In this document: positions 4,415 through 21,183 of the stretch, one piece after another
Layout of the letters: every line of letters starts with the position of its first letter
Position numbering within the stretch: the stretch's first letter is position 1
NCBI GenBank assembly: GCA_020052615.1
Contig: JAGVOT010000122.1
Span: 1-32,000, forward strand
Reading direction: 5' to 3'
Origin: Nitrospirota bacterium
GTDB lineage: Bacteria; Nitrospirota; UBA9217
DNA length: 32,000 bases
Made by a program: the position numbers and the translations under genes
The notes under the pieces: generated by a model
Told to the model about the DNA's origin: nothing
Database searches by the model: none
What the model saw: the letters and a program-made list of their open reading frames with translations, nothing else

Positions 4415-5350
4415 ATGCCATCAAAAAAGAAAACAAAGCCCGACCTCTCGGTGGACTTCGCCGGGATCAGGCTCAAGAACCCCGTGCTGACCGCGTCGGG
4501 GACCTTCGGGTACGGCGAGGAGTTTGCCGATATCATCGACCTGAACCGGCTGGGCGGCGTGATCGTCAAGGGTATTTCGCTCAAACCGATCACGGGCAAT
4601 CCGCCGCCGCGCATCTGGGAGACGCCGTCGGGCATGCTGAACGCCATCGGGCTCGAGAACCCGGGCGTGGACGTCTTTCTCCGGGACAAGCTTCCCTTCC
4701 TCCGGAACTATGATATCGCTGTCCTCGTGAACATATTCGGGTACTGCCTCGAGGACTACGTGGGCGTTGCCGAGCGGCTTGACGGCGTCCCCGGCGTGTC
4801 AGGCCTCGAGGTGAACATATCCTGCCCCAACGTGAAGGCCGGCGGCATCGTGTTCGGCACGGATCTCAAGGCGGCCTTCGAACTGCTCTCGGCGGTCCGC
4901 AAGGCCACCCGGCTGCCGGTCATCGCCAAGCTTTCTCCGAACGTGACGGACATCACCGCGTTCGCGAGAACGGCCCGCGACGCGGGGTGCGACGGGCTTT
5001 CGCTCATCAACACGCTCCTCGGCATGGCCATCGACATCCGGAGCAGACGGCCGAGGCTGGCGAACTGCACCGGGGGACTGTCGGGCCCGGCGATCCGGCC
5101 GGTCGCCGTTCGCATGGTCTGGCAGGCGGCAAAGGCGGTGGACCTCCCTCTCATCGGCATGGGCGGCATCATGACCCATGAGGACGCCCTCGAGTTCATC
5201 CTCGCGGGGGCGTCGGCCGTGGCCGTGGGGACGGCGAACTTCGTCAATCCCCGCGCGACACTGGACATCATCGGGGGCATGGAAGCCTTCCTCGTGCAGG
5301 AAGGCATCGGCAGCGTCAGGGAACTGGTGGGAAAGGTGTGCGTGGCATGA
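4415..5350 (+). CDS. pyrD: dihydroorotate dehydrogenase, class 1B catalytic subunit
   Basis: 311 aa. Motifs seen are [33 protein letters not shown] and [10 protein letters not shown]. It is paired with pyrK. Confidence 0.93.
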
Positions 5351-6834
5351 GGTTCGTCTCGAGCCTGAAAAGCAAGATCATCCTGGCGGTGTCCGCGATC
5401 CTGGCGGTCATCATCGGGACCGGCACGTGGATCAACATCGGGTACCAGCGGTCCCAGATGGAGGGCGCCCTCGAGGACAACGTCCTGATCATTGCCAACA
5501 CGATCGAGAAGAGCCTGGACAACGCCATGCTTGACGGGAAGAGCAAGGAGGTGCAGCATATCCTCGAAGCCGTCGGGACCTATCATAATATCCAGGAGCT
5601 GAAGATCTTCAGCCCCAACGGCGTGATCCTGAAGGCCTCAAAGCCCGGTCTCATCGGCAGAAAAGTGGACGGCACGACCCAGAAGTGGTATCTCGAGGGC
5701 AAGTTCAAGCGGCCCATCAAGCGCCGCGACGAGGGCGTCTTCTCCGTGCTGTTCCCCATCGAGAACACGGAACGGTGCTTTCACTGTCACGGCTCCAAGG
5801 CGAAACTGAACGGCATCCTGTCCGTGGACGTGTCCATGGCGCAGACGCAGGCGAAGGTCGGCGAGCTCAGCAAGACCATGGTCCTCTGGGCCTTCGGCAT
5901 CACGGCGACGCTTGCCCTGTCGCTGGGCATGTTCCTGACCAGGTTCGTCACGAAGCCGATCCAGGACCTGATCGCCACCATGGAGCGTGCGGAGCGGGGG
6001 CTGGAGGCGCGGGTGCAGGTGAAGAGCTCCGACGACATCGGACGGCTGGGCGAGGCGTTCAATTCGCTCCTGTCCAAGCTGGAGCGGGCGCGCCGCCGCG
6101 TTGAACGGTATCATTACGAGCAGATGAAGAGGGCTGACCGCCTGGCGTCGATCGGCGAGATGGCGGCCGGCATCGCACACGAGATCAAGAACCCCCTTGC
6201 GGGCATTGCCGGCGTGATCCAGGTGCTGAAGAAGGACCTCCCGCCGGGGGAACCGAAGCGGGCCGTGCTGGACGAAGTGCTTTCCCAGGTGGAGCGCATG
6301 GACAAGGCCGTCCGAAACCTCCTGTCCTTCGCCCGGCCTCCGGAACCCAAGATGACCCTCGTGGATGTCAACGAACTCATCGCCAAACTGCTCGATTTTC
6401 TCGCTCCGCAGTTCGCGAAGCATGGGATCGCGGCGGAACGGAAGCTTAGCACGGGACTGCCCTGGCTCGCTCTGGACCCCGACCTGCTGCAGCAGGCCCT
6501 TCTGAACATCTCCCTGAACGCCATCAAGGCCATGCCCGAAGGAGGCAGCTTCTCCATTGAAACCCGGCTGGAACTGCCGGAAGGAACGGGTCAGGGCGCC
6601 ATCAGGATCATTTTCTCGGACACCGGCGAGGGGATCCTGCCGGAGAACCTGGGCAGAATATTCAGTCCGTTCTTTACGACGCGCCAACAGGGTACGGGGT
6701 TGGGACTGGCCATTACCCAGCGGATCGTCGAGCAGCATAATGGGGAGATCAGCGTGATGAGCACTCCGGGACGGGGGACTTCCTTCACGATCAGCCTCCC
6801 GTTGTCCGTGAGCGAGCAGGCACAAGGAGCGTAG
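5347..6834 (+). CDS. sensor histidine kinase: TM, periplasmic domain with one CXXCH, TM, HAMP, HisKA, HATPase_c
   Basis: The H-box is [15 protein letters not shown]. The ATPase motifs are NAIKAM, DTGEGI and GTGLGLA. Two hydrophobic segments flank a domain of about 150 aa containing [11 protein letters not shown]. The ATG at 5347 overlaps the pyrD stop (ATGA). A GTG at 5338 is an alternative start. Confidence 0.88.
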
Positions 6835-6839
6835 GGACT

Positions 6840-8207
6840 ATGCCGCAGAAGATCCTGGTCATTGATGATGAAAAACTGATCCGCTGGACCCTGGAACAGC
6901 ACCTTGCAAAGGAAGGGTTCGAGGTGGTGACCGCGGATTCCGCGGAGAAGGGGCTCGAGATCATCAATGAGGATGCTCCGGACCTCATCCTTCTCGATAA
7001 CCGCCTGCCGGAGATGACGGGTCTCGAGCTCCTGGAGCAGTTGAATGTGCCGGAGCGGGGCCTCATGGTCATCATGATCACCGCGTACGGGCTTGTGGAA
7101 ACAGCGGTCAGGGCGATGAAACTGGGCGCCTACGACTACATCAGCAAACCCTTTAACCTCGAAGAGATCACCTTCGTGATCCGGAAGGCCATGGAGGCGG
7201 GGTCGCTCCGGTACCAGGTAAGGCAGCTGCGGGACAAGGTCAACACGATCATCGGAGAGAGCGACCAGATGGTGCAGGTGAAGAACCTCATCCTCAAGAT
7301 CGCCAAGAGCGACGCGACGACGGTGCTGATCCAGGGTGAAAGCGGTACGGGGAAGGAACTGGTGGCCAAGGCGATCCATTACAGCAGCGCACGGGCCGAC
7401 AAGCCGTTCATGGCCATCAACTGCGCGGCGCTGCCGGTCACGCTGCTGGAGACCGAGCTCATGGGCCATGAAAAGGGGGCGTTCACCGACGCCAAGGCGG
7501 CAAAGAAAGGGCTGTTCGAACTTGCCGACGGCGGCACCCTGTTCCTTGACGAGATCGGCGACATGGACCTGAGCATGCAGGCCAAACTTCTGCGTATTCT
7601 CGAAGAAAAGACCTTTCGCAGGGTAGGGGGGGTCAAGGATATCAAGGTGGATGTACGGGTCATTTCCGCAACGAACCAGGATCTTTCGACTACCCGGAGC
7701 GACATCCGGTTCCGGAAGGACCTCTACTACCGACTTCAGGTGGTCCCCATCCTTCTGCCGCCGCTGCGGGAGCGGGGACAGGATGCACTTCTTCTCGCAC
7801 GGCATTTCACCGATTATTTCAGCCGGGAATGCCACAAGAGCGTCAAGGGGATATCCAAGGACGTGGAGCGTGTGCTGCTGTCCTACCACTGGCCGGGGAA
7901 CGTGCGGGAGCTCAAGAACGTCATCGAGCGGGCCATGATCTTCGATGTCGAACAGGAGCTCCTTCCGGAGCACATTCCCCAGGAGATCATGGAGTCCGGG
8001 ACGGTACCGGTCGTGCATGCTGAATCTGCCATCTCGCTGGATTGTCTCGTCATACCCGAGACGGGGATATCCATTGAGGATGTCGAGCATGCCTTGGTCA
8101 AGAAGGCACTGCAGATGGCAGGAGACAATCAGACGCGTGCGGCTCAGCTGCTCAGGATGCCCCGCGACGCGTTCCGGCGGAGGATGAAGCGGTTTGGACT
8201 GATCTGA
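6840..8207 (+). CDS. sigma54-dependent response regulator (REC, AAA+ enhancer-binding domain, Fis-type HTH; NtrC/AtoC family)
   Basis: The REC domain has DLILLD. The Walker A motif is GESGTGKE. The sigma54-contact loop reads GAFTDA. Also present are DEIGDM, the R-finger region RVISATN and a C-terminal HTH (NQTRAAQLLRMPRDAFRRRMKRFG). Confidence 0.92.
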   Translation: MPQKILVIDDEKLIRWTLEQHLAKEGFEVVTADSAEKGLEIINEDAPDLILLDNRLPEMTGLELLEQLNVPERGLMVIMITAYGLVETAVRAMKLGAYDYISKPFNLEEITFVIRKAMEAGSLRYQVRQLRDKVNTIIGESDQMVQVKNLILKIAKSDATTVLIQGESGTGKELVAKAIHYSSARADKPFMAINCAALPVTLLETELMGHEKGAFTDAKAAKKGLFELADGGTLFLDEIGDMDLSMQAKLLRILEEKTFRRVGGVKDIKVDVRVISATNQDLSTTRSDIRFRKDLYYRLQVVPILLPPLRERGQDALLLARHFTDYFSRECHKSVKGISKDVERVLLSYHWPGNVRELKNVIERAMIFDVEQELLPEHIPQEIMESGTVPVVHAESAISLDCLVIPETGISIEDVEHALVKKALQMAGDNQTRAAQLLRMPRDAFRRRMKRFGLI

Positions 8208-8449: not shown

Positions 8450-8570
8450 GTCATTGCGAGGAGCGCTTTCGCTAGCCTGCCCCGGCATGGTTCAAGCAGG
8501 GGCGGCAATCTTGCAGGTATGGATTTCTTTCAAGCCGAGATTGCTTCGCTTTGCTCGCAAAGACGGCAAT
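8450..8570. repeat. degenerate nested palindromic (REP/MITE-like) element in the convergent intergenic region
   Basis: The outer pair is TTGCGAG (8454-8460) with CTCGCAA (8554-8560). The inner pair is GCAATCT (8505-8511) with AGATTGC (8538-8544). The right arm AGATTGCTTCGCTTTGCTCGCAA is compact. The left arm is split by about 44 nt. Confidence 0.55.
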
Positions 8571-8642
8571 AGGACCTATATCGTGACCTGCTGCACAATC
8601 GTGTTCCGTTGCGCGTTCGCTTTAAAGAGGTCCGATGAAAGG

Positions 8643-9428
8643 TCAGTTCAGGTCGGGATGGCATCTTCTGCAATCCTGGATGGGGAAGGCGACGGTGAGG
8701 TGGCAGACGCCGCAGAATTTACCATTCTTGATGTAGTCCATGCGAAAGTGCTTGGTCCCTTTTTTCTGGATATTGAAGATGTCGGGATGGCAGTCGGCGC
8801 AGTCGAGCCATTCGGTGTGCTTCTGATGGGGGAACGAAGCACGCGTCTTGACCATGCGCCATTCCGGTTCAAGGCGGAGGTTCTTGTCAAAAGGGAGGGA
8901 CTCAAAATCCGGATTGAAGAGGCTCTGTTTTGGCTTGATAAGGCCAATTTTCAGGGCCTTGACCCAGTTGATCCGGTCTCCATACCGGGCCCTGGGAAAA
9001 TCCTGCAGCTCTTTGAACCGCGCGTCCGAGGAACCGACGTTGCCCGTATGGCAGGTCTTGCAGGTTTGTTCCGTTATCCCGAAGGCGATCTTGCCGTTAT
9101 GACACGCCCCGCAGTATTCGCCTTTCCGGATCTTCGCATCGGTCATGTCCGTGGCGTTCGTCTTCATCGCGAAGTTCAGTTCGAAATGGCATACGCGGCA
9201 GGTGAAACGCCGCCGGTGGACCCAGTGGGAAAAGGCCACCGGCGGGTGGGTGCTGCTGAACGTGAGCCTGCTGATGAGGACATTCCCGTACTGCGAGGGA
9301 GGAAGGAGCGCGGGAAGGCTCCAGACCGTGTCGAACTGGGTCCCCCGCACCGGTTCCCTGCTGTCGCTCATGCAGGAAAACGAACTTCCCGCAAGCAACA
9401 GGGCAAGGACAATGACTATCGTTCGCAT
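8643..9428 (-). CDS. hexaheme c-type cytochrome (two c7-like triheme modules), periplasmic
   Basis: There are six CXXCH motifs: CRVCH, CGACH, CKTCH, CADCH, CGVCH and CRRCH. The signal peptide is MRTIVIVLALLLAGSSFSC. The ATG at 9428 is preceded by AAGGA, and this start is preferred over the longer 9485 start. It is a paralogue of the upstream gene. Confidence 0.85.
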   Translation of the reverse strand: MRTIVIVLALLLAGSSFSCMSDSREPVRGTQFDTVWSLPALLPPSQYGNVLISRLTFSSTHPPVAFSHWVHRRRFTCRVCHFELNFAMKTNATDMTDAKIRKGEYCGACHNGKIAFGITEQTCKTCHTGNVGSSDARFKELQDFPRARYGDRINWVKALKIGLIKPKQSLFNPDFESLPFDKNLRLEPEWRMVKTRASFPHQKHTEWLDCADCHPDIFNIQKKGTKHFRMDYIKNGKFCGVCHLTVAFPIQDCRRCHPDLN

Positions 9429-9481
9429 GCGTTCCTTTGTTCGTGAGACCGCCTCTTCATGCCCGGAGTGTCCCGAATGGA

Positions 9482-10273
9482 TCAATAGACCTCTTTCAGA
9501 TGACAGAGCTGACAGTCATAGAACGGGAACGCGACCTTGGCGTGACAGCTGCCGCAATACTTGCCGGCGAAGATGTCCTGCATATTGTACTTGGTGGCGC
9601 CCTTCTTGGCTCCGAAGATCTCGGGATGGCAGAGTTCGCATCCGTTGATGTCGGCGTGGATCTTGTGGGAGAAGATGATGTCCGGCATGCCGAGGATCGT
9701 GGACTTGATGTCGAAGTCCTTTGGCCGGGGAATGTCCTGCCGCTTGATGGAAATTCCTTCGACCTGGTCGCTGAGCTTGATGAGGTTCTTGTCAGCGGCC
9801 TTCATCCAGTCGACCCGGTTGCCGAACCGTGCCGGCGGGAAGCCCTTCAGGAATTCGTTGAAATCCTTCTGGTTCTTCACGTCCTTGCCGTAGGAGTGGC
9901 AGCGTTCGCAGTTCTGGACCTCGGTTACCAGCTTTTCCCGCGTTGTGGGACCGAAGGCCTCTTTGCCGTTATGGCAAGACCCGCAGTACAGGTGGTTCGT
10001 GTTGTCGGCTTCCCTGATATCGCTGCCGCCGGCCTCCATTGCGAATCCGAGATCGACATGGCAGACCCTGCAGGTGTATTTGGCCCGATGGATCCAGTGT
10101 TTGAATACGACCGGCGCGATGTTGTTCTTCTCGGAATAGTTATTGATGATGACATTGCCGAACTCTTCGGGCCGCGGCATTCTCTTCTTCGTGCCGAAGC
10201 TGCTGGTGGCGGCGATGCCTATGGATGCGAACACGAACAACAGTAGAGCGATGATCAGGACTTTGCGATTCAT
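9482..10273 (-). CDS. hexaheme c-type cytochrome (two c7-like triheme modules), periplasmic
   Basis: There are six CXXCH motifs: CRVCH, CGSCH, CERCH, CELCH, CGSCH and CQLCH. The signal peptide is MNRKVLIIALLLFVFASIGIAA. A GGAAGGAGAA ribosome-binding site lies 7 nt before the ATG. Confidence 0.88.
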   Translation of the reverse strand: MNRKVLIIALLLFVFASIGIAATSSFGTKKRMPRPEEFGNVIINNYSEKNNIAPVVFKHWIHRAKYTCRVCHVDLGFAMEAGGSDIREADNTNHLYCGSCHNGKEAFGPTTREKLVTEVQNCERCHSYGKDVKNQKDFNEFLKGFPPARFGNRVDWMKAADKNLIKLSDQVEGISIKRQDIPRPKDFDIKSTILGMPDIIFSHKIHADINGCELCHPEIFGAKKGATKYNMQDIFAGKYCGSCHAKVAFPFYDCQLCHLKEVY

Positions 10274-10551: not shown

Positions 10552-12012
10552 CTATCGATGGCAGTGCTGGCACAGATCGGCGGGCTTTTCCGCCTTATAC
10601 CGGAAAAGGCCTTTCCAGTCGGAGCTGTGCGCATTATGGCAGCTGATGCAGGCCATGGTCCTGTTGGCGCGTTTCGGATCGTCCACCTTGTCGATCGGAT
10701 GGCCGGATTTCCCGCCTTTCGGCTTTACCTTGATGTCGCCGGGAAGGGGCGTGTCCGGGTGCTGGCCGTTGAACGCGCTGCTGTGGCACTTCCGGCACAT
10801 GTCATTGCCTTCGGCTTTCGCGAGGCCCTTGAACGGAGAGGTATGGTTGCCGTGGCAATCGAAGCATCTGCCGTCGGCGACGGGTTTGTGCACATACTTG
10901 CCCGTGAACCCTTCCGTGCTGTGGCACGTATAGCAGAGGTCGGGGGACTTCCCGATGAGGAGCTTCTGGGACTGGCTCTGATGGGACGAGTGACAACTGC
11001 TGCACATGCCGATCTTGAAAGGACCGTGCTTTTCCCTGCCCATGAGCTCTTCGTTCATATGGCATTCAAAACAGAGCCCCGGGGTAGATTTGGTCAGCAG
11101 GAACTTTGATTTCGCATTATGCGCCTTGTGGCACGTGGTGCACCGTCCGCCTGCAACGGGCTTGTGGCCGTATTTGCCGCCGGTGAAGGATTTTTTATCG
11201 TGGCATTTATAGCAGAGCTCAGGCTGCTTTGCCTGCAGGAGCTTTTCCGTCCGGGACTGGTGCGAACTGTGACAGGACAGGCAATTTCCCTGGGCAACGG
11301 GTTCGTGAATGATACCGCTTGTGTATGCATTCTTGTCGTGGCAGGTGTAGCAGAGCCCCGGCGATTCCGCGACGAGGAGGTCCTTTGCATTCTGCGAATG
11401 GGGATTGTGGCAGGCGGTGCACTTGCCCGAAATGACCGGCTGGTGCTGCATCGCGGTCTTGTCGGCGATGCTCGCCCGGTCATGGCATCTGAAGCACAAC
11501 TCGGGCATGTTGAACGTCAGCAGCTTCTCATTGTTGTCCGAGCTGTGCGCGTCGTGGCAGAACCCGCACAGGGCGGCAGCGGTCGGGAAGTGGATGTTCT
11601 TCCTGGCCGAGATGTTCTTGTCGTGGCACTTGTAGCAGAGATCGGGCATGGCGGTGCTGAGCAGGCGGACGTTGTTGGAGGAATGCGGGTTGTGGCAGCC
11701 GGTGCATTTCCCCGTGGTTACCGGTTTGTGCTGGTAGCGCCTCAGGAACAGCGACCTGCTGTGGCAATCATAACAGAGGTCGGGCTGTTCGGACTTGAGG
11801 GAGAGAACGCCCTTGTTCGTGCCTCCCGCATGGGGCGCGACATGGCAGACACCGCAGCCTTTTTTCATGGCCCCGTGCAGCACCCTGCCTTTGCTCATTG
11901 CCTGGTGGCACTTGTTGCAGTCCTCATCGGCAGCGAAGGCGACCTCCGCGAACAGGAGCATTGCGGCAGCGCAGAGGAACGCTGATACTATCGGAAGGTT
12001 CTTGAAGTTCAT
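10552..12012 (-). CDS. 19-heme c-type cytochrome built from 'doubled CXXCH' repeats
   Basis: 19 CXXCH motifs were counted in the translation. The recurring unit is LCYxCH...H.PV..G.C..CH.xH. The signal peptide is MNFKNLPIVSAFLCAAAMLLFAEVAFA. The start is the ATG at 12012, with the GTG at 12033 as an alternative. Neither has a clear ribosome-binding site. Confidence 0.9.
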   Translation of the reverse strand: MNFKNLPIVSAFLCAAAMLLFAEVAFAADEDCNKCHQAMSKGRVLHGAMKKGCGVCHVAPHAGGTNKGVLSLKSEQPDLCYDCHSRSLFLRRYQHKPVTTGKCTGCHNPHSSNNVRLLSTAMPDLCYKCHDKNISARKNIHFPTAAALCGFCHDAHSSDNNEKLLTFNMPELCFRCHDRASIADKTAMQHQPVISGKCTACHNPHSQNAKDLLVAESPGLCYTCHDKNAYTSGIIHEPVAQGNCLSCHSSHQSRTEKLLQAKQPELCYKCHDKKSFTGGKYGHKPVAGGRCTTCHKAHNAKSKFLLTKSTPGLCFECHMNEELMGREKHGPFKIGMCSSCHSSHQSQSQKLLIGKSPDLCYTCHSTEGFTGKYVHKPVADGRCFDCHGNHTSPFKGLAKAEGNDMCRKCHSSAFNGQHPDTPLPGDIKVKPKGGKSGHPIDKVDDPKRANRTMACISCHNAHSSDWKGLFRYKAEKPADLCQHCHR

Positions 12013-12078
12013 AGGTTTTGTCCGAAAAGCCACGAAAGTCTATCAGAATATACGAAAAAAATCAAATGGTTCGCCCGA

Positions 12079-13377
12079 TCATTTGATCTGCTTGATGAAC
12101 TGCTTCAACTCAGCGTCGTTGGGAGCTATCTTGAGCGCCCTTTCCCATGTCTCGCGGGCCTTGTCCTTCTTCCCGATCGCGTAGTAGCCCGAGCCCAGGC
12201 GTTTCCAGGCGAGAATATTGTCGGGCTGAAGTTCGATGACGATCGTGCACTCCTGGATCGCAAGGTCGTATCTTCCTTCATAGATGTGGTTCAAGGCGGC
12301 AAAGAGGTACTGGTCGACGATGTTCATGTCGCCGACCGGCGCTTCCATGGTGCTCAGGATCGACACATACTTGAGCTCAAGAAAGCCTTTGACGGCGATG
12401 GTGAGCGAGGACGGGTTCAGCTGGAATGCGTACCAGGCTCCCGCCATCGAAGCCTTGCGGTTGCCGTCAGCGGCGATATAGTTGCTCATTGCTTTCCGCA
12501 TCATGTCGCCGGCCTGGCCCTTTTCATCGATCCTGAGCGCGACCTTGACGACATCGTCGAGGCGAGAGAGCATGGTCTTGACATCGATATCGGTCGGGTT
12601 GTCGGAGAGGATCTTGTTGTAATAGTCCCGCGCGATGATGTAGTCGCCCCGCTCGTAGGCCTGCCTCGCTTCGGCGTAAGTCGTTCCCATCTTCTCTTTC
12701 ACAGCGGATGCGATATAGCGCGATGCGGCTTCCTGCGACCCGTCGATCTCCAGGATCTTCCTCCATTCGGCAATGGCAAGATCGTATTTCTTTTCCTTCA
12801 TGTATGCATCTGCCTGGTCGTAATGCTTCTTGGTGCGCACATCGACGACGTTGCTCTTTGCATTGTTGTACAGACTGCGGGCCTTGCCGTCATAGGGCCG
12901 GACCACGAGGATCTTTTCCAGCTCGTTCAATGCCGACTTGTAGTCGCCATCCTTGATGAACTGCTCGGCGTGCTGGTACATCTCGTTGGTGGTCTTGTCG
13001 GTGATGAGGTTCTTGGTGATGTCGATCAGGTTCGCGAAGCGCCGGTCATCGGGGTTCATCTTCAGAAGCTTGTCCCAGACCTCGATCGCCGCCGCGTAAT
13101 TCTCGTTCTGAAAGGCCTCGGCGGCGTCCTTGCAGAAGGGCTCCATGACCTGCTGTCTGGCGATGGCCTGGTACCGGGAAGCTGTCTTGTCAAAGGGATC
13201 GATCGCCAGGATCTCGTTCAGGAGCGGGCCCGCCTGATCGAACTTGCCCTCTTTGAAAAGGACGACGACCTCTTTCTTGAGCTGTTCGATCCGTTCAAGC
13301 TGCTTCGGTGTGACAGCGTCCGCCCCGGTTGCGACGGCGAGAACGAGTATTGTGATAAGTGTAAGGAAGTTTTTCAC
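12079..13377 (-). CDS. secreted TPR-repeat protein
   Basis: 432 aa. The signal peptide is MKNFLTLITILVLAVATGADA. Repeated A..Y......Y..A...F..(I/L)L...P units run along its whole length. The GTG start overlaps the upstream stop (GTGA). Confidence 0.8.
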   Translation of the reverse strand: MKNFLTLITILVLAVATGADAVTPKQLERIEQLKKEVVVLFKEGKFDQAGPLLNEILAIDPFDKTASRYQAIARQQVMEPFCKDAAEAFQNENYAAAIEVWDKLLKMNPDDRRFANLIDITKNLITDKTTNEMYQHAEQFIKDGDYKSALNELEKILVVRPYDGKARSLYNNAKSNVVDVRTKKHYDQADAYMKEKKYDLAIAEWRKILEIDGSQEAASRYIASAVKEKMGTTYAEARQAYERGDYIIARDYYNKILSDNPTDIDVKTMLSRLDDVVKVALRIDEKGQAGDMMRKAMSNYIAADGNRKASMAGAWYAFQLNPSSLTIAVKGFLELKYVSILSTMEAPVGDMNIVDQYLFAALNHIYEGRYDLAIQECTIVIELQPDNILAWKRLGSGYYAIGKKDKARETWERALKIAPNDAELKQFIKQIK

Positions 13378-14039
13378 CCGTTTGCCCCTCTGACGATGGT
13401 GATTTCGATGCGCCGGTTCTTTGCCCGCTCTGCGTCGGTCTCGTTCGACGCAGCAGGCCTGAACTCTCCGAGCCCATGGGCGACAAGCCGCTCAGGGGCA
13501 ATGCCCTTGTTGATGAAATAGTAAATGACGCTGAAGGCCCTCGCAGACGACAGTTCCCAGTTTGAATCATACTGAGCGGTGTGTATGGGTATATTGTCCG
13601 TATGCCCTTCGGCGATGACCCTGTTGCTCATGGGTTTCAGCTGTCCGTGCAGATGTTCCAGAAAGGCCCCGATCCCCGGTTTCAGCTCGGCGCTGCCGCT
13701 GTCGAAGAGCGCAAAGCTCTCCATCTTGATCTTGATGTGGTGCGGGGTGATGACGAGCTGGATATTGTCGGTCATCCTGTTCTTTTCGATGAAGTCCCGG
13801 ATGTTCTGCGCCAGCGCGATCTCCTGTTTCATCTGCTTCACCCGCGGATCGTTCGGATTCGTCTCGGCAAGGTCGGAGAGCGCGGTCTCGTATTCCACGG
13901 AACCGGAATAGGAAAAGGCGTAGAACATGATGAAGAGGATGACCAGCGTGAGCATGAGGGTGCTGTAGGGCAGCATCCACAGCTCGGTCTCTTCCAGGTG
14001 CTCTTCGGTGTATTGTACGAACTTCCGGAGTACCGACAT
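13374..14039 (-). CDS. MotB-like protein, paralogue 2 (single TM lacking the conserved Asp; OmpA-like peptidoglycan-binding domain)
   Basis: The TM segment is LWMLPYSTLMLTLVILFIMFY. The C-terminal region is AEGHTDNIP...SNWELSSARA...NRRIEITIV. Its start shares one nucleotide with the upstream stop (TAATG). Confidence 0.82.
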   Translation of the reverse strand: MSVLRKFVQYTEEHLEETELWMLPYSTLMLTLVILFIMFYAFSYSGSVEYETALSDLAETNPNDPRVKQMKQEIALAQNIRDFIEKNRMTDNIQLVITPHHIKIKMESFALFDSGSAELKPGIGAFLEHLHGQLKPMSNRVIAEGHTDNIPIHTAQYDSNWELSSARAFSVIYYFINKGIAPERLVAHGLGEFRPAASNETDAERAKNRRIEITIVRGANG

Positions 14040-14716
14040 TACAGCGTGCTCCTCGCCTGGCGGACCAGGGTGATTTCGATGCGCCGGTTCCGGGCCCGAT
14101 TCACGTCCGAGTCGTTGGGATATGCCGGGTGGAACTCACCGTACCCTGCTGCCACGAGCTGCCCGGGGTCCATGCCGGAGGCGGTGAAAAAATTGACGAC
14201 GCCGACAGCCCGTGCGATGGACAGTTCCCAGTTGGAACGGTACGCGCCTCCGCGGACCGGGATCGCGTCCGTGTGGCCTTCGATGATGATGTCGTTGGGG
14301 AACGCCTCGATCAATCCAACGAGGCTTTCCAGGACATTGACCGTGCCGGGATTGAGCCTGGCGCTTCCGATGGAAAAGAACGTTTCGGGATTCAGGGCGA
14401 TCTTGACGGTCTTGTCCGTTACCGCGATGGTCGCCTTCCCGGAAAGTTGCCCATCCGAGGCCGCCTGCTCGATGCGCTTGATCGCCGCTTCTTCCCTTGC
14501 CATCTTCGCCTGGCGCTCCAGTTCGGCCTGCTCCCGCGCCGATTGGTTGACCACCGTGCTTTCCATGCCGGCGACCACCATCTGCTTTTCCACGGCGGTC
14601 ATGCGCGTCATGGAGAACAGCATAAGGAAGAACAGCATGAGGTTGGTCGTAATATCGGAAAAGATGATCAGCCAGATATTGCCGAACTCTTTCCTTTTTT
14701 CAGTCTGTGCATGCAT
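14039..14716 (-). CDS. MotB-like stator protein, paralogue 1 (TM with conserved Asp; OmpA-like domain)
   Basis: The TM segment is NIWLIIFSDITTNLMLFFLMLF, with Asp at the position of the MotB proton-binding Asp. The C-terminal region is IEGHTDAIP...SNWELSIARA...NRRIEITLV. Confidence 0.85.
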   Translation of the reverse strand: MHAQTEKRKEFGNIWLIIFSDITTNLMLFFLMLFSMTRMTAVEKQMVVAGMESTVVNQSAREQAELERQAKMAREEAAIKRIEQAASDGQLSGKATIAVTDKTVKIALNPETFFSIGSARLNPGTVNVLESLVGLIEAFPNDIIIEGHTDAIPVRGGAYRSNWELSIARAVGVVNFFTASGMDPGQLVAAGYGEFHPAYPNDSDVNRARNRRIEITLVRQARSTL

Positions 14717-14748
14717 GCCCGTGTCCGATCCCGTGTAGCTTCTTCCGG

Positions 14749-15519
14749 CTACTTCTGCCGAATATGCGCCATGATGAAAGCGGTCAGTTTCTTCCTCAGG
14801 ATGAGGGGGACGTCGCCCTGCTGGATCGACATGACGCCTTCAGCGATCATCTCCTTGCTGATGATGTCCCGCTCGCTGTGGTCGGTGAGCTTCGTCGCGA
14901 TCGGGATGAAGACGTTCGCCGAGAAGATCCCGTAAAAGGTCGCCGTGACGGCATTGGACATCGCGGCGCCCATGCTGGCGGGATTGGAAAGGTTCCTCAG
15001 CATTTCCACAATGCCCATGAGCGTGCCGAGAAGTCCGAAGATGGGGGCGACCGTGGCCATGGTCCGGAAGGCCCCTGAGACCTTTTGCTGATTGTGGCGG
15101 GTATAGAATATCTCGCGGCCGAGATTGTCCTTGATGACGTCGTGTTCAAGACCGTCAACGAGCATCTGGACGCCATGGACAAGGAATTTGTCCTCCATTT
15201 TCGGTATCTCGGCGGAAAGGGTCTCGATGCCGTCACGACGCGCCTTTTCGGCAAGCGAGGCAAGGTAATCGATCTTGTCCTCCATGTCCTTGTCGGAGTG
15301 CTTGCTGGGGAACAGCATGATGCGCAGGGACGGAATGATCTCCCGCACGACCGACCAGGGATAGGCTATCAGGGTAGCGCTGAACGTGCCGCCGTAGACA
15401 ATGACGAGCGCCAGGGGATTGAACAGCATGTGCAGGATGTTGCCTACCGCCAGAACATACAGGATCGTCAGCAGGATCGCGACGAGCCCGACAATTGTCA
15501 TTTTATCCATTTTTTCCAT
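14749..15519 (-). CDS. MotA/PomA-type stator channel protein
   Basis: It has a four-TM layout (two TM, a cytoplasmic loop of about 100 aa, two TM). It carries APIFGLLGTLMGIV and AVTATFYGIFSANVFIPIATKL, which include both conserved Pro positions. The ATG at 15519 lies 2 nt after the upstream stop, with GGAGG about 15 nt upstream. A TTG at 15543 is an alternative start. Confidence 0.88.
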   Translation of the reverse strand: MEKMDKMTIVGLVAILLTILYVLAVGNILHMLFNPLALVIVYGGTFSATLIAYPWSVVREIIPSLRIMLFPSKHSDKDMEDKIDYLASLAEKARRDGIETLSAEIPKMEDKFLVHGVQMLVDGLEHDVIKDNLGREIFYTRHNQQKVSGAFRTMATVAPIFGLLGTLMGIVEMLRNLSNPASMGAAMSNAVTATFYGIFSANVFIPIATKLTDHSERDIISKEMIAEGVMSIQQGDVPLILRKKLTAFIMAHIRQK

Positions 15520-15520
15520 G

Positions 15521-16942
15521 TTAGTTGTTTTCAACCTCCACAAGGCCTTCGTTGATCAGGCGGCGTACCACGACCATCAGGTTCTGTTTCTCCCGCCGGA
15601 GACGTGTTGCTGAGAGGGGACGGCTGAATTCCATCTCCTGCTTGAGCCGCTCGGCGGCACCGGCGCTCAAGGATGAGAGGACCTTCTGCTGGATGTCCTC
15701 GGAAGAGGTCTTCAGGATCTGGGCGAAGAGCGCGGCCTCGACGTTCCGGGTGAGCGTCTGGATGCCCTGTGCCGGAAGGTCGCGGATGATGTTCTCCAGG
15801 CTCCTGATGCGCTGCTTCAGGCGCGCGGCGGTGGGGGCGTCCTTCGCCTCGAGCGTCTTGACGATCTTCTCGCGGACCTCCTCGTTGGTCATATCGAGCA
15901 GCGTGACCAGCTTGTTTTCGCCGCCCACGACGTAGGTGAGCTTGTTCTTGACCATCTCTTCGAGGGCGGTAACCTTCTCGACGCTGATCTCTTCCTTGCC
16001 GAGGGATATCGCGACCTCGACCTGCTTCTCCTTCGGGAAAAGCTCGAGGAACCGCATGGCAAGGACGGGGTCAAGGTAGTTTGTCACGATCGCAATGTCC
16101 TGCGCCGCCTTGTCCTTCAGGAGGAACGCGAGGCCAGGGAGGTCGCGCTCGCGAACGAAGGAGAAGGGAAGCCCCGCTTCCTGCGCGGAGACGGCTGCGG
16201 CGGCCGCAACCGCGCTGCCTGCCATGACCTCCCGCTCATAGGTCGAGGTATGCTCCACGTTGACGGTCTGTGCCGTAGCACCTCCGCCCCGGATGGCGCT
16301 CCAGTCGATCTCCTTGAGGGCCGGGATCACTTTCTTAAGCGGATCCATCAGGAACAGTCCGGCCATGACCATCATGAAGCCGCCAACGATGGTCAGGATC
16401 AGCCACAGGAAGTTCGGAAGTGCGAAGAGCGTTCGGAAAAAGCCCTTTGATTCGAAGTCAACTTTCTTTACGTTGATCTGGTCGCCCCGGGTCTGGCTGA
16501 ATCCGATCACGTTCTTCGCCATGTCCTCGATAAGTTCCACGATCGACCCCGGAACGCTGCTGTCGATCCAGATGGAAAGGGTGATCTTGTTGACCCGGTA
16601 CTTGCTGCTCCCGGCGCCGAACAACATCTCGGACTGCCCGGCGCCGAACTCCTTCTTTTGCGGAACGCCGGGGAGCACCAGCGCGTTCGTCTTCTTTTTT
16701 TCGAGAAGCTGGTCGCTGCCGCCTCGCGCGGACACCAGCTCGGCATTCACAAAGATGACGACCTTGTCCGTACCGGTTATTTCCTGGATGACCTGTTTGA
16801 GCTTGCGTTCAAGCTGGCTCTCCAGGGAGATCTTGAGAGCATAATCATCATTTACCTCGGCGTGCGACACCGGGACGGCCGTGAGAAGAATAAACATGAC
16901 GAGAAGAAGCAGGAGTGGACTGCGAGTGATTGTTCGAACCAT
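15521..16942 (-). CDS. membrane protein fusing a shortened FliF-like periplasmic segment and TM to FliG middle and C-terminal domains
   Basis: The signal peptide or first TM is LLLLLVMFILLTAVPVSHA. The periplasmic part ends in LIEDMAKNVIGFSQTRGDQINVKKVDF followed by a TM, which resembles the remembered end of Salmonella FliF (MGFSDKRGDTLNVVNSPF plus TM2). The cytoplasmic part matches the FliG middle and C-terminal domain pattern: DIAIVTNYLDP..A..FL..FP, VVGGENKLVTLL and LSAGAAERLKQEMEF...VVVRRLINEGLVEV. Confidence 0.75.
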   Translation of the reverse strand: MVRTITRSPLLLLLVMFILLTAVPVSHAEVNDDYALKISLESQLERKLKQVIQEITGTDKVVIFVNAELVSARGGSDQLLEKKKTNALVLPGVPQKKEFGAGQSEMLFGAGSSKYRVNKITLSIWIDSSVPGSIVELIEDMAKNVIGFSQTRGDQINVKKVDFESKGFFRTLFALPNFLWLILTIVGGFMMVMAGLFLMDPLKKVIPALKEIDWSAIRGGGATAQTVNVEHTSTYEREVMAGSAVAAAAAVSAQEAGLPFSFVRERDLPGLAFLLKDKAAQDIAIVTNYLDPVLAMRFLELFPKEKQVEVAISLGKEEISVEKVTALEEMVKNKLTYVVGGENKLVTLLDMTNEEVREKIVKTLEAKDAPTAARLKQRIRSLENIIRDLPAQGIQTLTRNVEAALFAQILKTSSEDIQQKVLSSLSAGAAERLKQEMEFSRPLSATRLRREKQNLMVVVRRLINEGLVEVENN

Positions 16943-17035: not shown

Positions 17036-17052
17036 ATGCAATATATGTACCT
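17036..17052 (-). promoter_or_regulatory. candidate sigma54 (-24/-12) promoter for the minus-strand array
   Basis: The minus strand reads AGGTACATATATTGCAT. This gives GG-N10-GC spacing and a perfect TTGCA -12 element, with two mismatches to TGGCAC. It lies about 95 nt upstream of the ATG at 16942. Confidence 0.4.
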
Positions 17053-17381
17053 GTAGTTTCACACTAATAATTGTTGGATGTGATATTCAAGTATGTGAAA
17101 AATAAGAATTAATTAAAAAATAATTTGCGCCTCTATGGGATTTAACAAATATTTAACCGAGCGAATGTGCTCACCCGGTGCTTGTTAGTGCTCTCTAATG
17201 TTTACGAGTAAGCGTCCCAAATTAGCACAGTGCAAGATTATTTGTAAAGTGGAATCTTGTCTTTTATTTCGAGAGTGTGTATGATATTCCGTTCAGAGAT
17301 CATGTGTCGGCTGTTCTTTGGCCAGGATTTCGGTGCTCTGTATCGTAAAATCCACCGGCAAAGATCAGCGGGAAGGGACCT

Positions 17382-19022
17382 ATGAAAAAAATAGCGATGA
17401 TCGTTATGGGTTTGTTCATTCTGTTGACCGTCGGCGGCGCAAATGCAGCGACAAGCAGGAAGGCAACTCCCAAGGACAAGGCGCCGGCAGTCAAGGACAG
17501 GAGCGCGGCGGGTGCTCCCGCAAAAGCGGAGAAGACGTCTGTGCCTCTCAACGAGCGTTATACCGACAAGGGCGACGGCACGATCCTTGACAAGAACACC
17601 GGCCTGATCTGGCTCAAAGATGCCAATATCAGCAATCTGCCCCTGCCCGGCGAGGGCGCAAAGCAGTATCTTCAGGAAATGAACAGCGGAAAAAAACCGA
17701 ATTTCGGCTACTCCGATTGGCGCCTGCCGACCATCAATGAGATCGAGACGCTCGTGGAGAAATCCCGGTTCTATCCGGCGCTTCCGGTCGGCCACCCGTT
17801 CACGAATGTGCAGAACCATTTCTACTGGTCGTCGTCGACGGGGAAAGATGTTCTCGATTACGTATGGATCGTGGACCTGGCATCGGGCGAGATGACCATG
17901 GACTATGTTTCCTATTGCAGTTACAAGTTCCTCTGGCCGGTCAGGAGCAGCTGGATGCCGACGACCGCCAAGGCGAGCACCGTCATGACCGGCGGCCTGA
18001 ACGAATTCGGCCAGCTCGGCGACGGCTCCACGGGGGACCGGGACGCATTCCTGCCGGTAAGCGGCCTGGAGAACGTGGTCAAGGTCTCCGCGGGCCTTGA
18101 ACATGCCGTGGCGCTCAAGTCAGACGGGTCTGTTTGGACGTGGGGACGGAACAACCGGGGCCAGCTGGGGAACGGCACCGTCGAAGACAGCCGGGTGCCG
18201 GTCGCTGCCAAGGACCTCTGGAGGATCACCGATGTCGCGGCGGGCATGTTCCATACGCTCGCACTTGCGTCCGATGGAACGGTCTGGGCCTGGGGGCGTA
18301 ATTCCTACGGACAGCTCGGGAACGGATCCAACGAGGACAGCATAACACCGGTGCGGGTCAGCGGTCTGTCGGGCGTCGTGAAGATCTCCGCGGGGATGTA
18401 TCACTCGGTCGCGGTCAGGTCCGACGGATCGGTCCATGCCTGGGGCAGGAACGTGTACGGTCAGCTTGGCGACGGCTCGAACAAGGACCGGAACAGTGCA
18501 GGTCAGGTTTCCGGGATATCGGGAGCCGTGAACGTCACTGCGGGGCTTCATCATACGGTGGTCCTGAGATCCGATAAGACCGTCTGGGCATGGGGCTGGA
18601 ATATCAACGGCATGCTCGGTGACGGGACGGGAACCGATCAGTTCAAGCCGGTGCAGGTCAAGGGCCTTGCCGACATCGTGGACATCCAGGCGGGACTGCA
18701 TCACACCATTGCGCTCAGGTCCGATGGGAGCGTCTGGACATGGGGGGGGAACGAATACAGCCAGCTTGGCAACAAGTCGGCAAGCGGATCAACGGCGATC
18801 AAGATCGATGGCTTGGGGAACATCAAGAAGGTATCGGCGGGAATGTACCACTCCATCGCTGTGATGACGGACGGTACGATCTGGGTATGGGGCAAGGACC
18901 TGAAGAACCAGCCGTTGAAACCCTATCCCGTACGGATATGGGATGTTGCCGGGATAAACGATGTCGCTGCCGGACGGTTCTATACGGTCGTGTTGAGCGG
19001 CGGAAAATCTGCCGTGCAGTGA
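17382..19022 (+). CDS. secreted protein with a DUF1566 (Lcl C-terminal-like) domain and seven RCC1 beta-propeller repeats
   Basis: The signal peptide is MKKIAMIVMGLFILLTVGGANA. The DUF1566 pattern is GDGTILDKNTGLIWLKD...DWRLPTINEIETLV...YWSSS...WPVRS. It is followed by repeated W(T/A)WG.N..GQLG(D/N)G units. Confidence 0.85.
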   Translation: MKKIAMIVMGLFILLTVGGANAATSRKATPKDKAPAVKDRSAAGAPAKAEKTSVPLNERYTDKGDGTILDKNTGLIWLKDANISNLPLPGEGAKQYLQEMNSGKKPNFGYSDWRLPTINEIETLVEKSRFYPALPVGHPFTNVQNHFYWSSSTGKDVLDYVWIVDLASGEMTMDYVSYCSYKFLWPVRSSWMPTTAKASTVMTGGLNEFGQLGDGSTGDRDAFLPVSGLENVVKVSAGLEHAVALKSDGSVWTWGRNNRGQLGNGTVEDSRVPVAAKDLWRITDVAAGMFHTLALASDGTVWAWGRNSYGQLGNGSNEDSITPVRVSGLSGVVKISAGMYHSVAVRSDGSVHAWGRNVYGQLGDGSNKDRNSAGQVSGISGAVNVTAGLHHTVVLRSDKTVWAWGWNINGMLGDGTGTDQFKPVQVKGLADIVDIQAGLHHTIALRSDGSVWTWGGNEYSQLGNKSASGSTAIKIDGLGNIKKVSAGMYHSIAVMTDGTIWVWGKDLKNQPLKPYPVRIWDVAGINDVAAGRFYTVVLSGGKSAVQ

Positions 19023-19650: not shown

Positions 19651-19666
19651 AGGCATGTTTATTGCA
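19651..19666 (+). promoter_or_regulatory. candidate sigma54 (-24/-12) promoter for the plus-strand cytochrome array
   Basis: Sequence AGGCATGTTTATTGCA. This gives GG-N10-GC spacing and a perfect TTGCA, with two mismatches to TGGCAC. It lies 58 nt upstream of the ATG at 19724. An IHF-like AATCAT-N4-TTA site is at 19614-19626. Confidence 0.5.
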
Positions 19667-19723: not shown

Positions 19724-21079
19724 ATGAGGAAACAAAATGCGTTGGGAACGATCTCTCTGGTAGGATTGATCGGATTCCTGCTCATCATTTTTGCTTTTCC
19801 CGGCCATGGCACGTCCCAGACGCCGGCTCCTGCTTCGGAGAGCTGCGTCAGCGCAAATTGTCACGTCACCATGGGCAAGGAGAAGGTCGTCCATAATCCC
19901 GTAAAGGAAGGCATGTGCACGACCTGCCATCTTGCCGCGGATGATCCTCTCAAGAAGACCAGGCATCCAGGCAATCTTGTCATCTCCCTCGTGCAGCCGG
20001 TGGCGGACCTTTGCACAATGTGTCATGAGCCAAAGAACAAGAAAAAGGTCGTCCATGCGCCGATCCAGGGGGGGGATTGTACGTCCTGTCATAACCCTCA
20101 TCAGTCGCCGAACAAAGGCATGCTGAAGGACGTCATGCCGAATATCTGTTTTCAGTGTCATCCGGACAGCATGGTGAAGCATGCCGTCATGCACCCGCCG
20201 GTGGCGGGAGGGGATTGCTCGGGTTGTCATGACAATCATCAGAGCGATTTTCCCAAACGGCTGGTCAATGAGGGGAACGCCCTCTGTTTCCAGTGTCATC
20301 CCGATAAGGAAGAGGGCCTCAAGACCAGGAAGGTAGCCCACTATCCCGTCAAGCAGTCCTGCACCCAGTGCCACAATCCCCATGGATCGTCCGCGAAGGC
20401 CATGCTCACCGCACCGGTACCGGAGCTTTGTTCAACCTGTCATCCGAACGAAGTGATGCTGCGTCAACGGGCCGCCACCAAGCACGGGCCCATGGCCGAT
20501 CAAAAGAGCTGCCGCATCTGTCATGATCCGCATTTCTCCGATCAGCCGCGGCTTCTCGTCACCTCGCAGATGGCGCTGTGTCTTGCCTGTCATGACAAGG
20601 AGCTCGAGACCGGCAAGGGCAAGGTCATGAACATGAAGGCGTTTCTCGAGGCGAACAAGAACACCCATGGCCCTCTGAAGGGCGACGATTGTGTTTCATG
20701 CCATAATCCGCACGGCTCGGACTACTGGAGGATCCTGGTGAAGTATTATCCCCCGGATTTCTATGCGTCCTACTCCGAGGGGAAGTATGCACTGTGTTTC
20801 TCCTGCCACGATAAGGCGGCATTCACGGAGCGGCGCACGAAAACGGCCACGGGCTTCCGTGATGGTGAACAGAACCTCCATTTCGTTCACGTGAACAAGG
20901 TCAACAAGGGGAGGACGTGCAAAGCCTGTCACGAGGTGCACGCGGACAGCGGACAGAATGCACATGTGAAACAATTCGTTGGATTCAGCGGGTGGGCGAT
21001 GCCCATGAACTTCACGCAGGGCAAGGACGGCGGGACCTGTGCGCCGGGGTGTCATGGGGAAAAACGGTACAACAGGTAA
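19724..21079 (+). CDS. multiheme c-type cytochrome with 13 CXXCH motifs plus one CX4CH and one CX3CH (doubled-CXXCH type)
   Basis: Motifs were counted in the translation. The first site is CVSANCH and the last is CAPGCH. The N-terminal hydrophobic signal is ISLVGLIGFLLIIFAFPGHG. An AAGGAG ribosome-binding site lies 10 nt before the ATG. Confidence 0.9.
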   Translation: MRKQNALGTISLVGLIGFLLIIFAFPGHGTSQTPAPASESCVSANCHVTMGKEKVVHNPVKEGMCTTCHLAADDPLKKTRHPGNLVISLVQPVADLCTMCHEPKNKKKVVHAPIQGGDCTSCHNPHQSPNKGMLKDVMPNICFQCHPDSMVKHAVMHPPVAGGDCSGCHDNHQSDFPKRLVNEGNALCFQCHPDKEEGLKTRKVAHYPVKQSCTQCHNPHGSSAKAMLTAPVPELCSTCHPNEVMLRQRAATKHGPMADQKSCRICHDPHFSDQPRLLVTSQMALCLACHDKELETGKGKVMNMKAFLEANKNTHGPLKGDDCVSCHNPHGSDYWRILVKYYPPDFYASYSEGKYALCFSCHDKAAFTERRTKTATGFRDGEQNLHFVHVNKVNKGRTCKACHEVHADSGQNAHVKQFVGFSGWAMPMNFTQGKDGGTCAPGCHGEKRYNR

Positions 21080-21183
21080 ACGGCGTTTGGCGGTCCTGTC
21101 CAGGCAGGAAAGAATACGTGGGTCCTAATAACAGCGCAGCAGACCGATGTCGGGGGAATAATTTGAACAGACCATGGTCAATC

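Follow-up and report, generated by a model that had tools for sequence, protein, structure and literature searches.

Five adjacent minus-strand genes in a Nitrospirota contig (JAGVOT010000122.1), at 12079-16942 of the 32-kb stretch that was analyzed and is called the window here, encode a protein that joins part of FliF to part of FliG (the rotor protein), a MotA-type stator protein, two MotB proteins (MotB1 and MotB2) and a secreted tetratricopeptide repeat (TPR) protein. This set of genes, which we refer to as the cassette, is probably a self-contained, non-flagellar, ion-driven rotor-stator machine of the cell envelope. The cassette looks like an envelope machine and not like a piece of a flagellum because it recurs in at least two phyla and never beside other flagellar genes. 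Pfam revealed no flagellar, export-gate, hook or chemotaxis gene among the 18 other open reading frames (ORFs) tested in the window, and no structural gene of the flagellum (export gate, rod, hook, filament or FliM/FliN) was found in 37 loci; these absences apply to the window and the 37 loci. The sole neighbors in the 37 loci that bear a flagellar name are FlbD and a small protein with a FlgD_ig domain.

A scan of one genome per species yielded 23 loci: 15 from Nitrospirota, seven from Elusimicrobiota and one (L013) labeled 'uncultured bacterium', which carries the same cassette as the Nitrospirota loci. The order rotor-MotA-MotB1-MotB2-TPR is kept in all Nitrospirota loci with enough sequence, and the order in Elusimicrobiota is barrel, TPR (with LysM), rotor, MotA, MotB, MotB and a dCache histidine kinase. 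Since the order recurs in the 15 Nitrospirota loci and the gene set in the seven Elusimicrobiota loci, the five-gene arrangement is not a product of chance. A metagenome scan with a three-sequence alignment gave nine loci, and the core synteny is also seen in the high-GC and low-GC metagenome loci L030-L037, the high-GC loci repeating the series rotor, (MotA), MotB, (MotB), TPR. Protein searches by word index found little beyond close relatives in Nitrospirota and made the family look smaller than it is; a broader view came from an exhaustive profile search against 1.84 billion representatives, clustered at 50% identity, in which 290 clusters matched the rotor profile at E<=1e-30. Most of the best 150 of these 290 clusters match from the ring-building motif (RBM) through the end of FliG_C, and the rest are fragments. 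C-terminal extensions occur in about 40 of the best 150, one such branch having a C-terminal TPR. Taxon labels for the family cover two phyla only, Nitrospirae and Elusimicrobiota being the only labels obtained for 20 clusters that were looked up.

An earlier reading of the window, made from the sequence alone, had proposed five minus-strand genes at the same coordinates, encoding a FliF-like stub and transmembrane (TM) helix fused to the FliG middle and C-terminal domains, a four-TM MotA/PomA-type channel, a MotB with the TM Asp, a second MotB without it and a secreted all-TPR protein, and had noted no other flagellar, export-gate, hook or chemotaxis gene in the 32 kb. The ORF list, Pfam, phmmer, Foldseek and alignments agree with it on each of these points, and profiles for FliG_M, FliG_C, YscJ_FliF_C, MotA_ExbB and OmpA were all detected above cut-off. 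That reading also held that the torque-generating interface is reused outside a flagellum. This part is supported, in that none of the surveyed relatives sits in a flagellar locus, but the reading gave too much weight to the neighboring cytochromes and missed the breadth of the family; the term 'orphan' that it applied to the cassette does not suit a member of a large, multi-phylum family.

One spare base separates the rotor and MotA genes and a gap of 32 nt separates MotA from MotB1; the ORF list contains the previously noted overlaps of 1 nt at 14039 (MotB1/MotB2) and 4 nt at 13374-13377 (MotB2/TPR). The likely start of MotA is the ATG at 15519, one base past the stop of the rotor gene, and not the TTG at 15543 given by the ORF lister, because the alignment to solved MotA proteins begins at this internal Met. 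All five reading frames are intact, and comparison with the L001 orthologues gave dN/dS values of 0.05-0.17, which indicate purifying selection on each of the five genes.

The fused rotor, its stator and conserved partners

The rotor protein gave Pfam matches to FliG_C (4.8e-18), FliG_M (2.4e-6) and YscJ_FliF_C (2.7e-6, at aa 113-163), and these, like all Pfam matches reported here for cassette proteins, exceed the curated cut-offs. From its N terminus the protein consists of a signal or first TM segment (aa 2-21), an RBM3-like domain (aa 32-161), a TM helix (aa ~175-210), a disordered linker and the FliG middle and C-terminal domains (FliG_MC, aa 259-468), which align to T. maritima FliG_MC (3ajc) with E=1.2e-18 in phmmer. 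In an AF2 model the RBM3-like domain has the arrangement alpha-beta-beta-alpha-beta (helices at aa 32-56 and 132-146, strands at aa 61-71, 115-127 and 155-161), and it holds a disordered 40-residue insert carrying an invariant LPGVPxKKE motif. A Foldseek search of the PDB with the rotor model placed FliG_MC structures at the top (E=3e-10, or about 1e-10), followed by RBM3/S-ring structures of FliF from Salmonella and Vibrio (6scn, 6sd3, 7cg7; E about 2e-4), and the target TM-score was 0.5-0.57 for chains that comprise RBM3/S-ring only (6sd3, 7cg7, 8z5v). From the phmmer, AF2 and Foldseek results we therefore conclude that the rotor protein is a natural FliF(RBM3)-TM-FliG(MC) fusion. It has every hallmark of the fusion family, namely the signal or TM segment, an RBM with an LPGVPxK(K)E loop, the TM helix, the linker, the PF(S)F motif and FliG_MC with Gly and Glu at the positions equivalent to R281 and D289.

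A single RBM lies between the two hydrophobic segments of the rotor protein and matches RBM3/S-ring; RBM1 and RBM2, the domains of FliF that hold the export gate, are absent in both the AF2 and Foldseek analyses, and the fliF model TIGR00206, whose cut-off is 129.75 bits, reaches 25.9 bits. FliG_N gave no match in the rotor protein, whose FliG part begins at a PFSF motif after the TM helix and linker. Because the FliF and FliG parts are fused, FliG_N is redundant, and the FliF-FliG contact that normally needs it is hard-wired 1:1. In the alignment with T. maritima FliG, DKAAQ stands in place of the FliM-binding EHPQ(R) motif. The Gly-Gly hinge of the FliG part is invariant; Nitrospirota have lost the MFxF hinge (RSLE), which Elusimicrobiota (FFFED) and other branches keep. 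Within the torque helix, the equivalents of K264, R281, D288, D289 and R297 of E. coli FliG are K411, G428, Q435, E436 and S444, respectively. The family-wide signature of this helix is a nearly invariant Gly at R281, an invariant Glu at D289 and a conserved Lys at K264. Beyond FliG_C the family varies: in at least one member, P0152 (713 aa), a proline-rich spacer leads to a second FliG_C-like repeat, which is partial, and others have long C-terminal tails rich in Pro/Ala or Lys/Glu.

MotA matches MotA_ExbB (3.2e-24) and MotA_N in Pfam and aligns from end to end with solved flagellar MotA/PomA proteins (9lu9, 4e-41; 6ysl, 2e-37; 8bri, 2e-32), which include those of B. subtilis (6ysl) and C. 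sporogenes as well as PomA. Its best NCBIfam matches are flagellar MotA/PomA/MotP models at 135-178 bits, and the prolines of TM3 and TM4 are kept. Both MotB proteins have MotB_plug and OmpA matches. MotB1, which matches C. sporogenes MotB (6ysf) at 2.8e-37, carries the channel Asp in its TM segment (FSD), and the counterpart in MotB2 is YST. The features of a flagellar stator, a four-TM MotA and a MotB with the Asp, plug and peptidoglycan-binding domain, are all found in MotA and MotB1, and MotB2 lacks the Asp. Thr occupies this position in MotB2 of the window and of all 13 Nitrospirota loci compared (13/13), and the second MotB of other lineages has kept the Asp where the position is readable (Elusimicrobiota, L034 and L037). 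Since its dN/dS is 0.12, MotB2 does not appear to be decaying.

Stator and rotor can be compared at the residues that meet in the flagellar motor, where the pairs are R90 of MotA with D289 of FliG and E98 with R281 (PMC7564593). Every stator aligned from Nitrospirota and Elusimicrobiota has Arg at the R90 equivalent; the E98 equivalent is Ser in the window, Ser, Ala or Gln across Nitrospirota and Glu in Elusimicrobiota. The interface differs from the flagellar one because three torque-helix charges and the E98 equivalent of Nitrospirota MotA have changed. In Nitrospirota the R90-D289 pair is kept on both sides and the E98-R281 pair is lost on both sides, which is consistent with a working but remodeled interface.

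The fifth cassette protein matches TPR families throughout (TPR_2, 8e-27). Its C-terminal ~200 aa form a family-specific TPR module that is 33% identical (E=4e-32) to the TPR half of a barrel-TPR fusion in L025 and 29% identical to the Elusimicrobiota TPR protein, and these alignments indicate that the module is orthologous across phyla. A further hallmark of the family, MotA/MotB and the orthologous periplasmic TPR module adjoining the rotor gene, is present in the window. Outside Nitrospirota the cassette usually has next to it an outer-membrane barrel that resembles PorV/UPF0164, which is present in the Elusimicrobiota loci, L024-L028 and L037. The Elusimicrobiota barrel matches the N-terminal half of the barrel-TPR fusions, which in loci of the profile-search relatives are encoded immediately 5' of the rotor gene, with large unannotated proteins 3'. 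L025 and L026 also have FlbD, MotA and MotB, and giant proteins upstream. No homologue of the barrel was found in the window or in any Nitrospirota locus by tblastn with three barrel queries. In all Nitrospirota loci for which upstream sequence is available, L013 excepted, the cassette is preceded by a divergently transcribed gene for a secreted protein with Lcl_C and an RCC1 beta-propeller. The gene is absent elsewhere, and this protein is possibly a lineage-specific partner in Nitrospirota.

In L024 and L037, PorV or PorP/SprF barrels are accompanied by CHU_C/Por_Secre_tail cargo. Elements in the style of a type IX secretion system (T9SS) lie within a few genes of the rotor gene in these two unrelated lineages (L024, 1-5327; L037, 180-4436), the cargo being a Big_5 protein, an S8 peptidase and an fn3 protein with CHU_C/Por_Secre_tail.

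Relation to known ion-driven systems

The cassette shares with the flagellar motor the FliF RBM3 fold, FliG_M/FliG_C with the Gly-Gly hinge and torque helix, a full-length MotA, and a MotB with the Asp, plug and OmpA domain. It differs in that it has no FliG_N, RBM1/RBM2 or EHPQR motif and no FliM/FliN, export-gate, rod, hook or filament genes nearby, in the change of three of the five torque charges, in its extra Asp-less MotB, and in its TPR partner, to which a barrel is added in other phyla.

Tol-Pal/ExbBD and Zorya, which the sequence-only reading had set aside, are rejected here as well. The TolQ model scores 20.4 bits with MotA, far below its cut-off of 221 and well behind the flagellar MotA models, the B subunits carry OmpA domains, and there is no TolA/TonB gene in the window. 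Zorya shares with the cassette a MotAB-like 5:2 motor outside a flagellum, but PADLOC gave no ZorA match and no match of any kind for MotA or the rotor protein, its matches for the MotBs reflect generic ZorB/OmpA homology, and the long ZorA tail and ZorC/ZorD are missing.

The nearest working analogies, which are not relatives, are the gliding/T9SS machinery of Bacteroidota and the Agl-Glt machinery of Myxococcus, in which an ion-driven motor, a TPR protein or shaft, a barrel and a large surface protein occur together. As in the Bacteroidota system (the GldLM/PorLM 5:2 motor, PorV, PorP/SprF and SprB), relatives of the cassette have an inner-membrane, ion-driven motor locus with PorV/PorP-like barrels and, in L024 and L037, cargo with a C-terminal domain (CTD). 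The cassette differs from it in having no GldL/GldM homologues and a motor made of MotAB and a FliG-type rotor, and within the window neither GldL/GldM nor CTD cargo was detected by Pfam, nor a PorV/PorP barrel by tblastn. Agl-Glt and Tol-Pal/CpoB combine a 5:2 motor with TPR proteins of the periplasm and with anchors to peptidoglycan or the outer membrane, and the Agl motor uses two different B-type subunits (AglQ/AglS). These motors differ from the cassette in being TolQR-type, with a three-TM A subunit and a B subunit without OmpA, and in acting on TolA/TonB-like rods rather than on a FliG ring.

Some flagella have periplasmic scaffolds that position the stators around the rotor; they consist of TPR/Sel1-type proteins and of OmpA-type proteins that have no channel function, such as the TPR proteins PflA/PflB in Campylobacter and MotX/MotY in Vibrio. 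By analogy, it is possible that the TPR protein and the Asp-less MotB2 serve as stator scaffolds, although PflA/PflB and MotX/MotY are add-ons to complete flagella. Reuse of flagellar parts has been described in the non-flagellated Lysobacter enzymogenes, in which remnants of the flagellar type III secretion system have been re-functionalized (PMC7277350, PMC7688988). In that case an export apparatus was reused for the control of twitching, whereas the cassette has a rotor-stator pair, a dedicated fused rotor and conserved partners.

A possible mechanism and its alternatives

How might such a machine work? Homology suggests that the fusion protein would form an S-ring-like oligomer underlain by a FliG ring, and engineered FliF-FliG fusions do assemble rings (PDB 8z4d; PMC11481574). 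MotA5:MotB units at the rim of the ring, anchored to peptidoglycan and homologous to flagellar stators, would turn or push the ring by ion flow; their B subunits are probably MotB1/MotB2 heterodimers, and the stator may contact the rotor through the retained charge pair of the MotA R90 equivalent and E436, the FliG D289 equivalent. The periplasmic face of the ring, with its LPGVPxKKE loop, and the TPR protein may carry the work outward. The putative receiver in other phyla is the PorV/UPF0164-like barrel, often beside giant proteins or T9SS-type cargo, and the candidate partners in Nitrospirota are the secreted RCC1/Lcl protein and the neighboring multiheme cytochromes. Because FliG_N, EHPQR and, in Nitrospirota, the MFxF hinge are lost, the machine is expected to have no C-ring and no CheY-type reversal via FliM. 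Candidate outputs are the movement of surface proteins or gliding, secretion, envelope maintenance and the handling of cytochromes.

Several observations weigh against the cassette being a working rotor-stator machine. Three of the five classical charges of the FliG torque helix are replaced, the E98 equivalent in Nitrospirota MotA is not Glu, and MotB2 lacks the essential channel Asp. The AF2 model of the rotor monomer is of moderate confidence (pLDDT 66.6, pTM 0.30). Finally, the output end of the Nitrospirota machine is undefined because the barrel seen elsewhere is missing.

One alternative is that the cassette supplies accessory parts to a flagellum encoded elsewhere, a second stator together with a FliF/FliG paralogue that would become part of the normal basal body, act as its brake or alter it. 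MotA and the MotBs are of flagellar type with flagellar stators as their best matches, many bacteria carry extra stator sets, and two FliG paralogues occur in some bacteria. The fusion, however, could not occupy the normal position of FliG or FliF because FliG_N, RBM1/RBM2 and EHPQR are missing; the partners conserved with it, a TPR protein and an outer-membrane barrel, are not flagellar proteins, the cassette never lies beside flagellar genes in the 37 loci, and Elusimicrobiota that bear the family have no structural flagellar genes (10.1101/2022.07.08.499144). We consider an accessory role quite unlikely. That the cassette is a functionless, decaying remnant of a lost flagellar locus is scarcely credible: although flagellar remnants are known in non-motile lineages (PMC12199754), the frames are intact, dN/dS is 0.05-0.17, the family has invariant motifs of its own and comprises about 290 clusters, and gene order is conserved across phyla. 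Another unlikely alternative is a non-rotary energizer or sensor of the Tol/Ton kind, in which ion flow alters the shape of the FliG-RBM protein and force or a signal is passed on in the absence of continuous rotation; its output could be envelope integrity, or it could sense membrane energization and feed the neighboring two-component systems. Such systems are recurrent neighbors (a histidine kinase and sigma-54 response regulator in the window, the dCache histidine kinase in Elusimicrobiota, a receiver (REC) protein in L032, and a histidine kinase with a response regulator in L037), the TPR and OmpA-type proteins recall Tol-Pal/CpoB, and the partial retention of the classical torque charges and the lack of the Asp in MotB2 also fit a device that does not rotate. 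On the other hand, the 1:1 fusion of RBM3 with FliG_MC has a rotor's architecture, unlike TolA or TonB, and MotA belongs to the flagellar (MotA_N) and not to the TolQ/ExbB type; the kinases are tied to the cassette by adjacency alone.

The cytochromes next to the cassette raise another possibility, applicable to the Nitrospirota variant only, that the motor positions, assembles or gates them. As the sequence-only reading had stated, a 19-heme cytochrome gene starts 45 bp past the TPR gene and is followed by two hexaheme cytochrome genes (19, 6 and 6 CXXCH motifs). No terminator-like site was found on the minus strand between the TPR and 19-heme genes, the two genes are direct neighbors in 10 close loci as well, and in the distant L012 (rotor protein 44% identical) a gene resembling that for the 19-heme cytochrome overlaps the TPR stop by 4 nt. 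The cytochromes of L011 lie on the other side of the cassette, upstream and beyond RCC1; the RCC1-cassette-cytochrome block of L010 is opposite in orientation to the genes on its flanks, which would fit an inversion of the whole block; and a cytochrome c/b561 fusion in L034 is the only cytochrome neighbor seen outside Nitrospirota. Against a role of the motor in cytochrome handling, no cytochromes follow the TPR gene in L013, L015 and L018, and none adjoin the cassette in the Elusimicrobiota loci, L024-L028, L030-L033 or L035-L037 (L029 is too short to have flanks). The adjacency is also less informative because the Nitrospirota regions are rich in cytochromes on both sides, and the hexaheme pair is preceded by a 279-bp gap of its own with a promoter-like, sigma-70-like site. 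We give this possibility a small chance. Since the cytochrome link is recurrent in Nitrospirota and, save for the L034 fusion, absent elsewhere, it appears to be a lineage-specific add-on; the cytochromes could be co-regulated neighbors or a lineage-specific output, an association of uncertain meaning. The description 'inside a multiheme-cytochrome operon' in the sequence-only reading passes over what matters most in the locus: the constant partners are MotA/MotB and the TPR module, and the cytochromes are essentially confined to Nitrospirota.

If the cassette is the envelope machine that we favor, the claim may extend further. It is conceivable, although we would stop short of calling it probable, that the cassette represents an unrecognized class of ion-driven rotary envelope machines with an RBM3::FliG_MC rotor and MotAB, widespread in uncultivated phyla, among them Nitrospirota and Elusimicrobiota, and driving outer-membrane or surface components via a TPR link. 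Such a class may be a flagellar spin-off or a survivor related to a pre-flagellar rotor-stator module, with the Nitrospirota members rewired to RCC1/Lcl and cytochromes. To our knowledge, every known use of the FliG/FliF ring is within the flagellum, and we know of no non-flagellar relative of the stators (Tol, Ton, Agl, Gld, Zorya) that has FliG, these being TolQR/ExbBD-like or divergent motors. No description of the fusion family was found in the literature searched, where the only passing remark is on Elusimicrobiota: a preprint by Uzun et al. reports free-living members without structural flagellar genes that yet have motAB, flbD and fliG of "unclear" role (10.1101/2022.07.08.499144). [quoted passage not shown] The phenomenon has been glimpsed before; the fused rotor, the conserved partners and the breadth of the family are not described in the literature searched.

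An envelope machine of this kind would mean that the torque-generating interface can function by itself, outside the flagellum, would bear on models of flagellar origin, and would explain the "enigmatic" motAB, flbD and fliG genes of non-flagellated Elusimicrobiota (10.1101/2022.07.08.499144). The rotor would also be a simpler subject for structural and single-molecule work, as it is one protein with no C-ring and no export gate. If the cytochrome link in Nitrospirota is functional, ion-motive mechanics would be joined to extracellular electron transfer.

Neighboring genes and regulatory sites

The other genes of the window are carB, greA, pyrK, pyrD, those for the histidine kinase, the sigma-54 response regulator and the secreted Lcl_C/RCC1 protein, and further genes for additional multiheme cytochromes, two NHL proteins, Kup, a GGDEF protein and RmuC. 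Coordinates of the cassette genes and associated features are collected in Table 1.

Table 1. Cassette genes, rotor domains, neighboring genes and putative regulatory sites in the window
Feature	Coordinates	Strand	Basis
Rotor protein (FliF/FliG fusion), 473 aa	15521..16942	-	ORF list, Pfam
RBM3-like periplasmic ring-building domain of rotor protein	16460..16849	-	Secondary structure, S-ring fold matches, YscJ_FliF_C
Cytoplasmic FliG_M and FliG_C (torque) domains	15539..16168	-	Alignment with T. maritima FliG, residue by residue
MotA-type four-TM stator A subunit, 256 aa	14749..15519	-	Pfam, solved-structure alignment
MotB1: TM with channel Asp, plug, OmpA-like peptidoglycan-binding domain	14039..14716	-	Pfam, alignments
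MotB2: paralogue with plug and OmpA, Thr replacing channel Asp	13374..14039	-	Pfam, alignments
Secreted all-TPR protein	12079..13377	-	Pfam
19-heme c-type cytochrome, 45 bp past TPR	10552..12033	-	CXXCH count, Pfam, synteny
Two hexaheme cytochromes, two triheme c7 domains each	8643..10273	-	CXXCH count, Pfam/NCBIfam
Divergent secreted Lcl_C and RCC1 beta-propeller protein	17382..19022	+	Pfam, synteny
Invariant intergenic motif TTCnnCTTTACAA...TnTGnTA, sigma-70-like, upstream of rotor gene	17221..17256	-	9-locus alignment
Sigma-54-like site AGGTACATATATTGCA, 110 nt upstream of rotor gene	17037..17052	-	Alignment
Histidine kinase and sigma-54-dependent response regulator	5338..8207	+	Pfam, synteny

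The most conserved part of the spacer between the RCC1 and rotor genes is the motif that begins with TTCnnCTTTACAA, which is invariant in 9 of 9 aligned loci; it could be a promoter or operator, serving either of the divergent genes. The sigma-54-like site AGGTACATATATTGCA is conserved only in the window, L001, L006, L007 and L010, and sigma-54 consensus matches across the window number 7, against a chance expectation of 13.5. Another sigma-54-like site, AGGCATGTTTATTGCA (19651-19666, plus strand), lies 73 nt upstream of a 13-heme cytochrome gene (19724-21079), with equivalent sites conserved in L001, L008, L015 and L018. This site and the response regulator gene at 6840-8207 suggest that the right-hand cytochrome operon may be sigma-54-dependent. 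The histidine kinase and response regulator are, by their adjacency, candidate regulators. The kinase (5338-6834, plus strand) shares a periplasmic Mcp40H-20-type sensor with the GGDEF protein (27700-29340, plus strand), the match of the latter being weak. In L032 a REC-only response regulator (8465-8884, minus strand; Response_reg 2.5e-27) is divergent from the rotor gene, and ORFs with similar N-termini occupy this position in L031, L033 and L036; the REC-only protein is a CheY-like candidate for the regulation of this rotor, in which the FliM-binding motif is missing.

Several observations concern the cytochromes themselves. The two hexaheme cytochromes (8643-9485 and 9482-10273, minus strand) are tandem paralogues with two 'nanowire_3heme' (TIGR04257) domains each; the TTG start that the ORF lister gives the distal cytochrome probably lies too far upstream, as a Met 19 codons in precedes the signal peptide. 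A run of N at about 15140-15240 of L012 falls within the cytochrome gene after TPR and hides its length and heme count. The cytochrome in L034, a 68% GC metagenome locus, is a multiheme cytochrome c/b561 membrane fusion (11443-13341, minus strand) convergent to the TPR gene. To the right of the cassette in the window, the ORF at 20917-23124 (plus strand) has eight CXXCH motifs and a central OmpA-like domain. Since its start as listed gives it an overlap of about 160 nt with the cytochrome gene before it, the true start probably lies further in. Together with two NHL-repeat genes (23193-25231), this ORF resembles a porin-cytochrome-type cluster.

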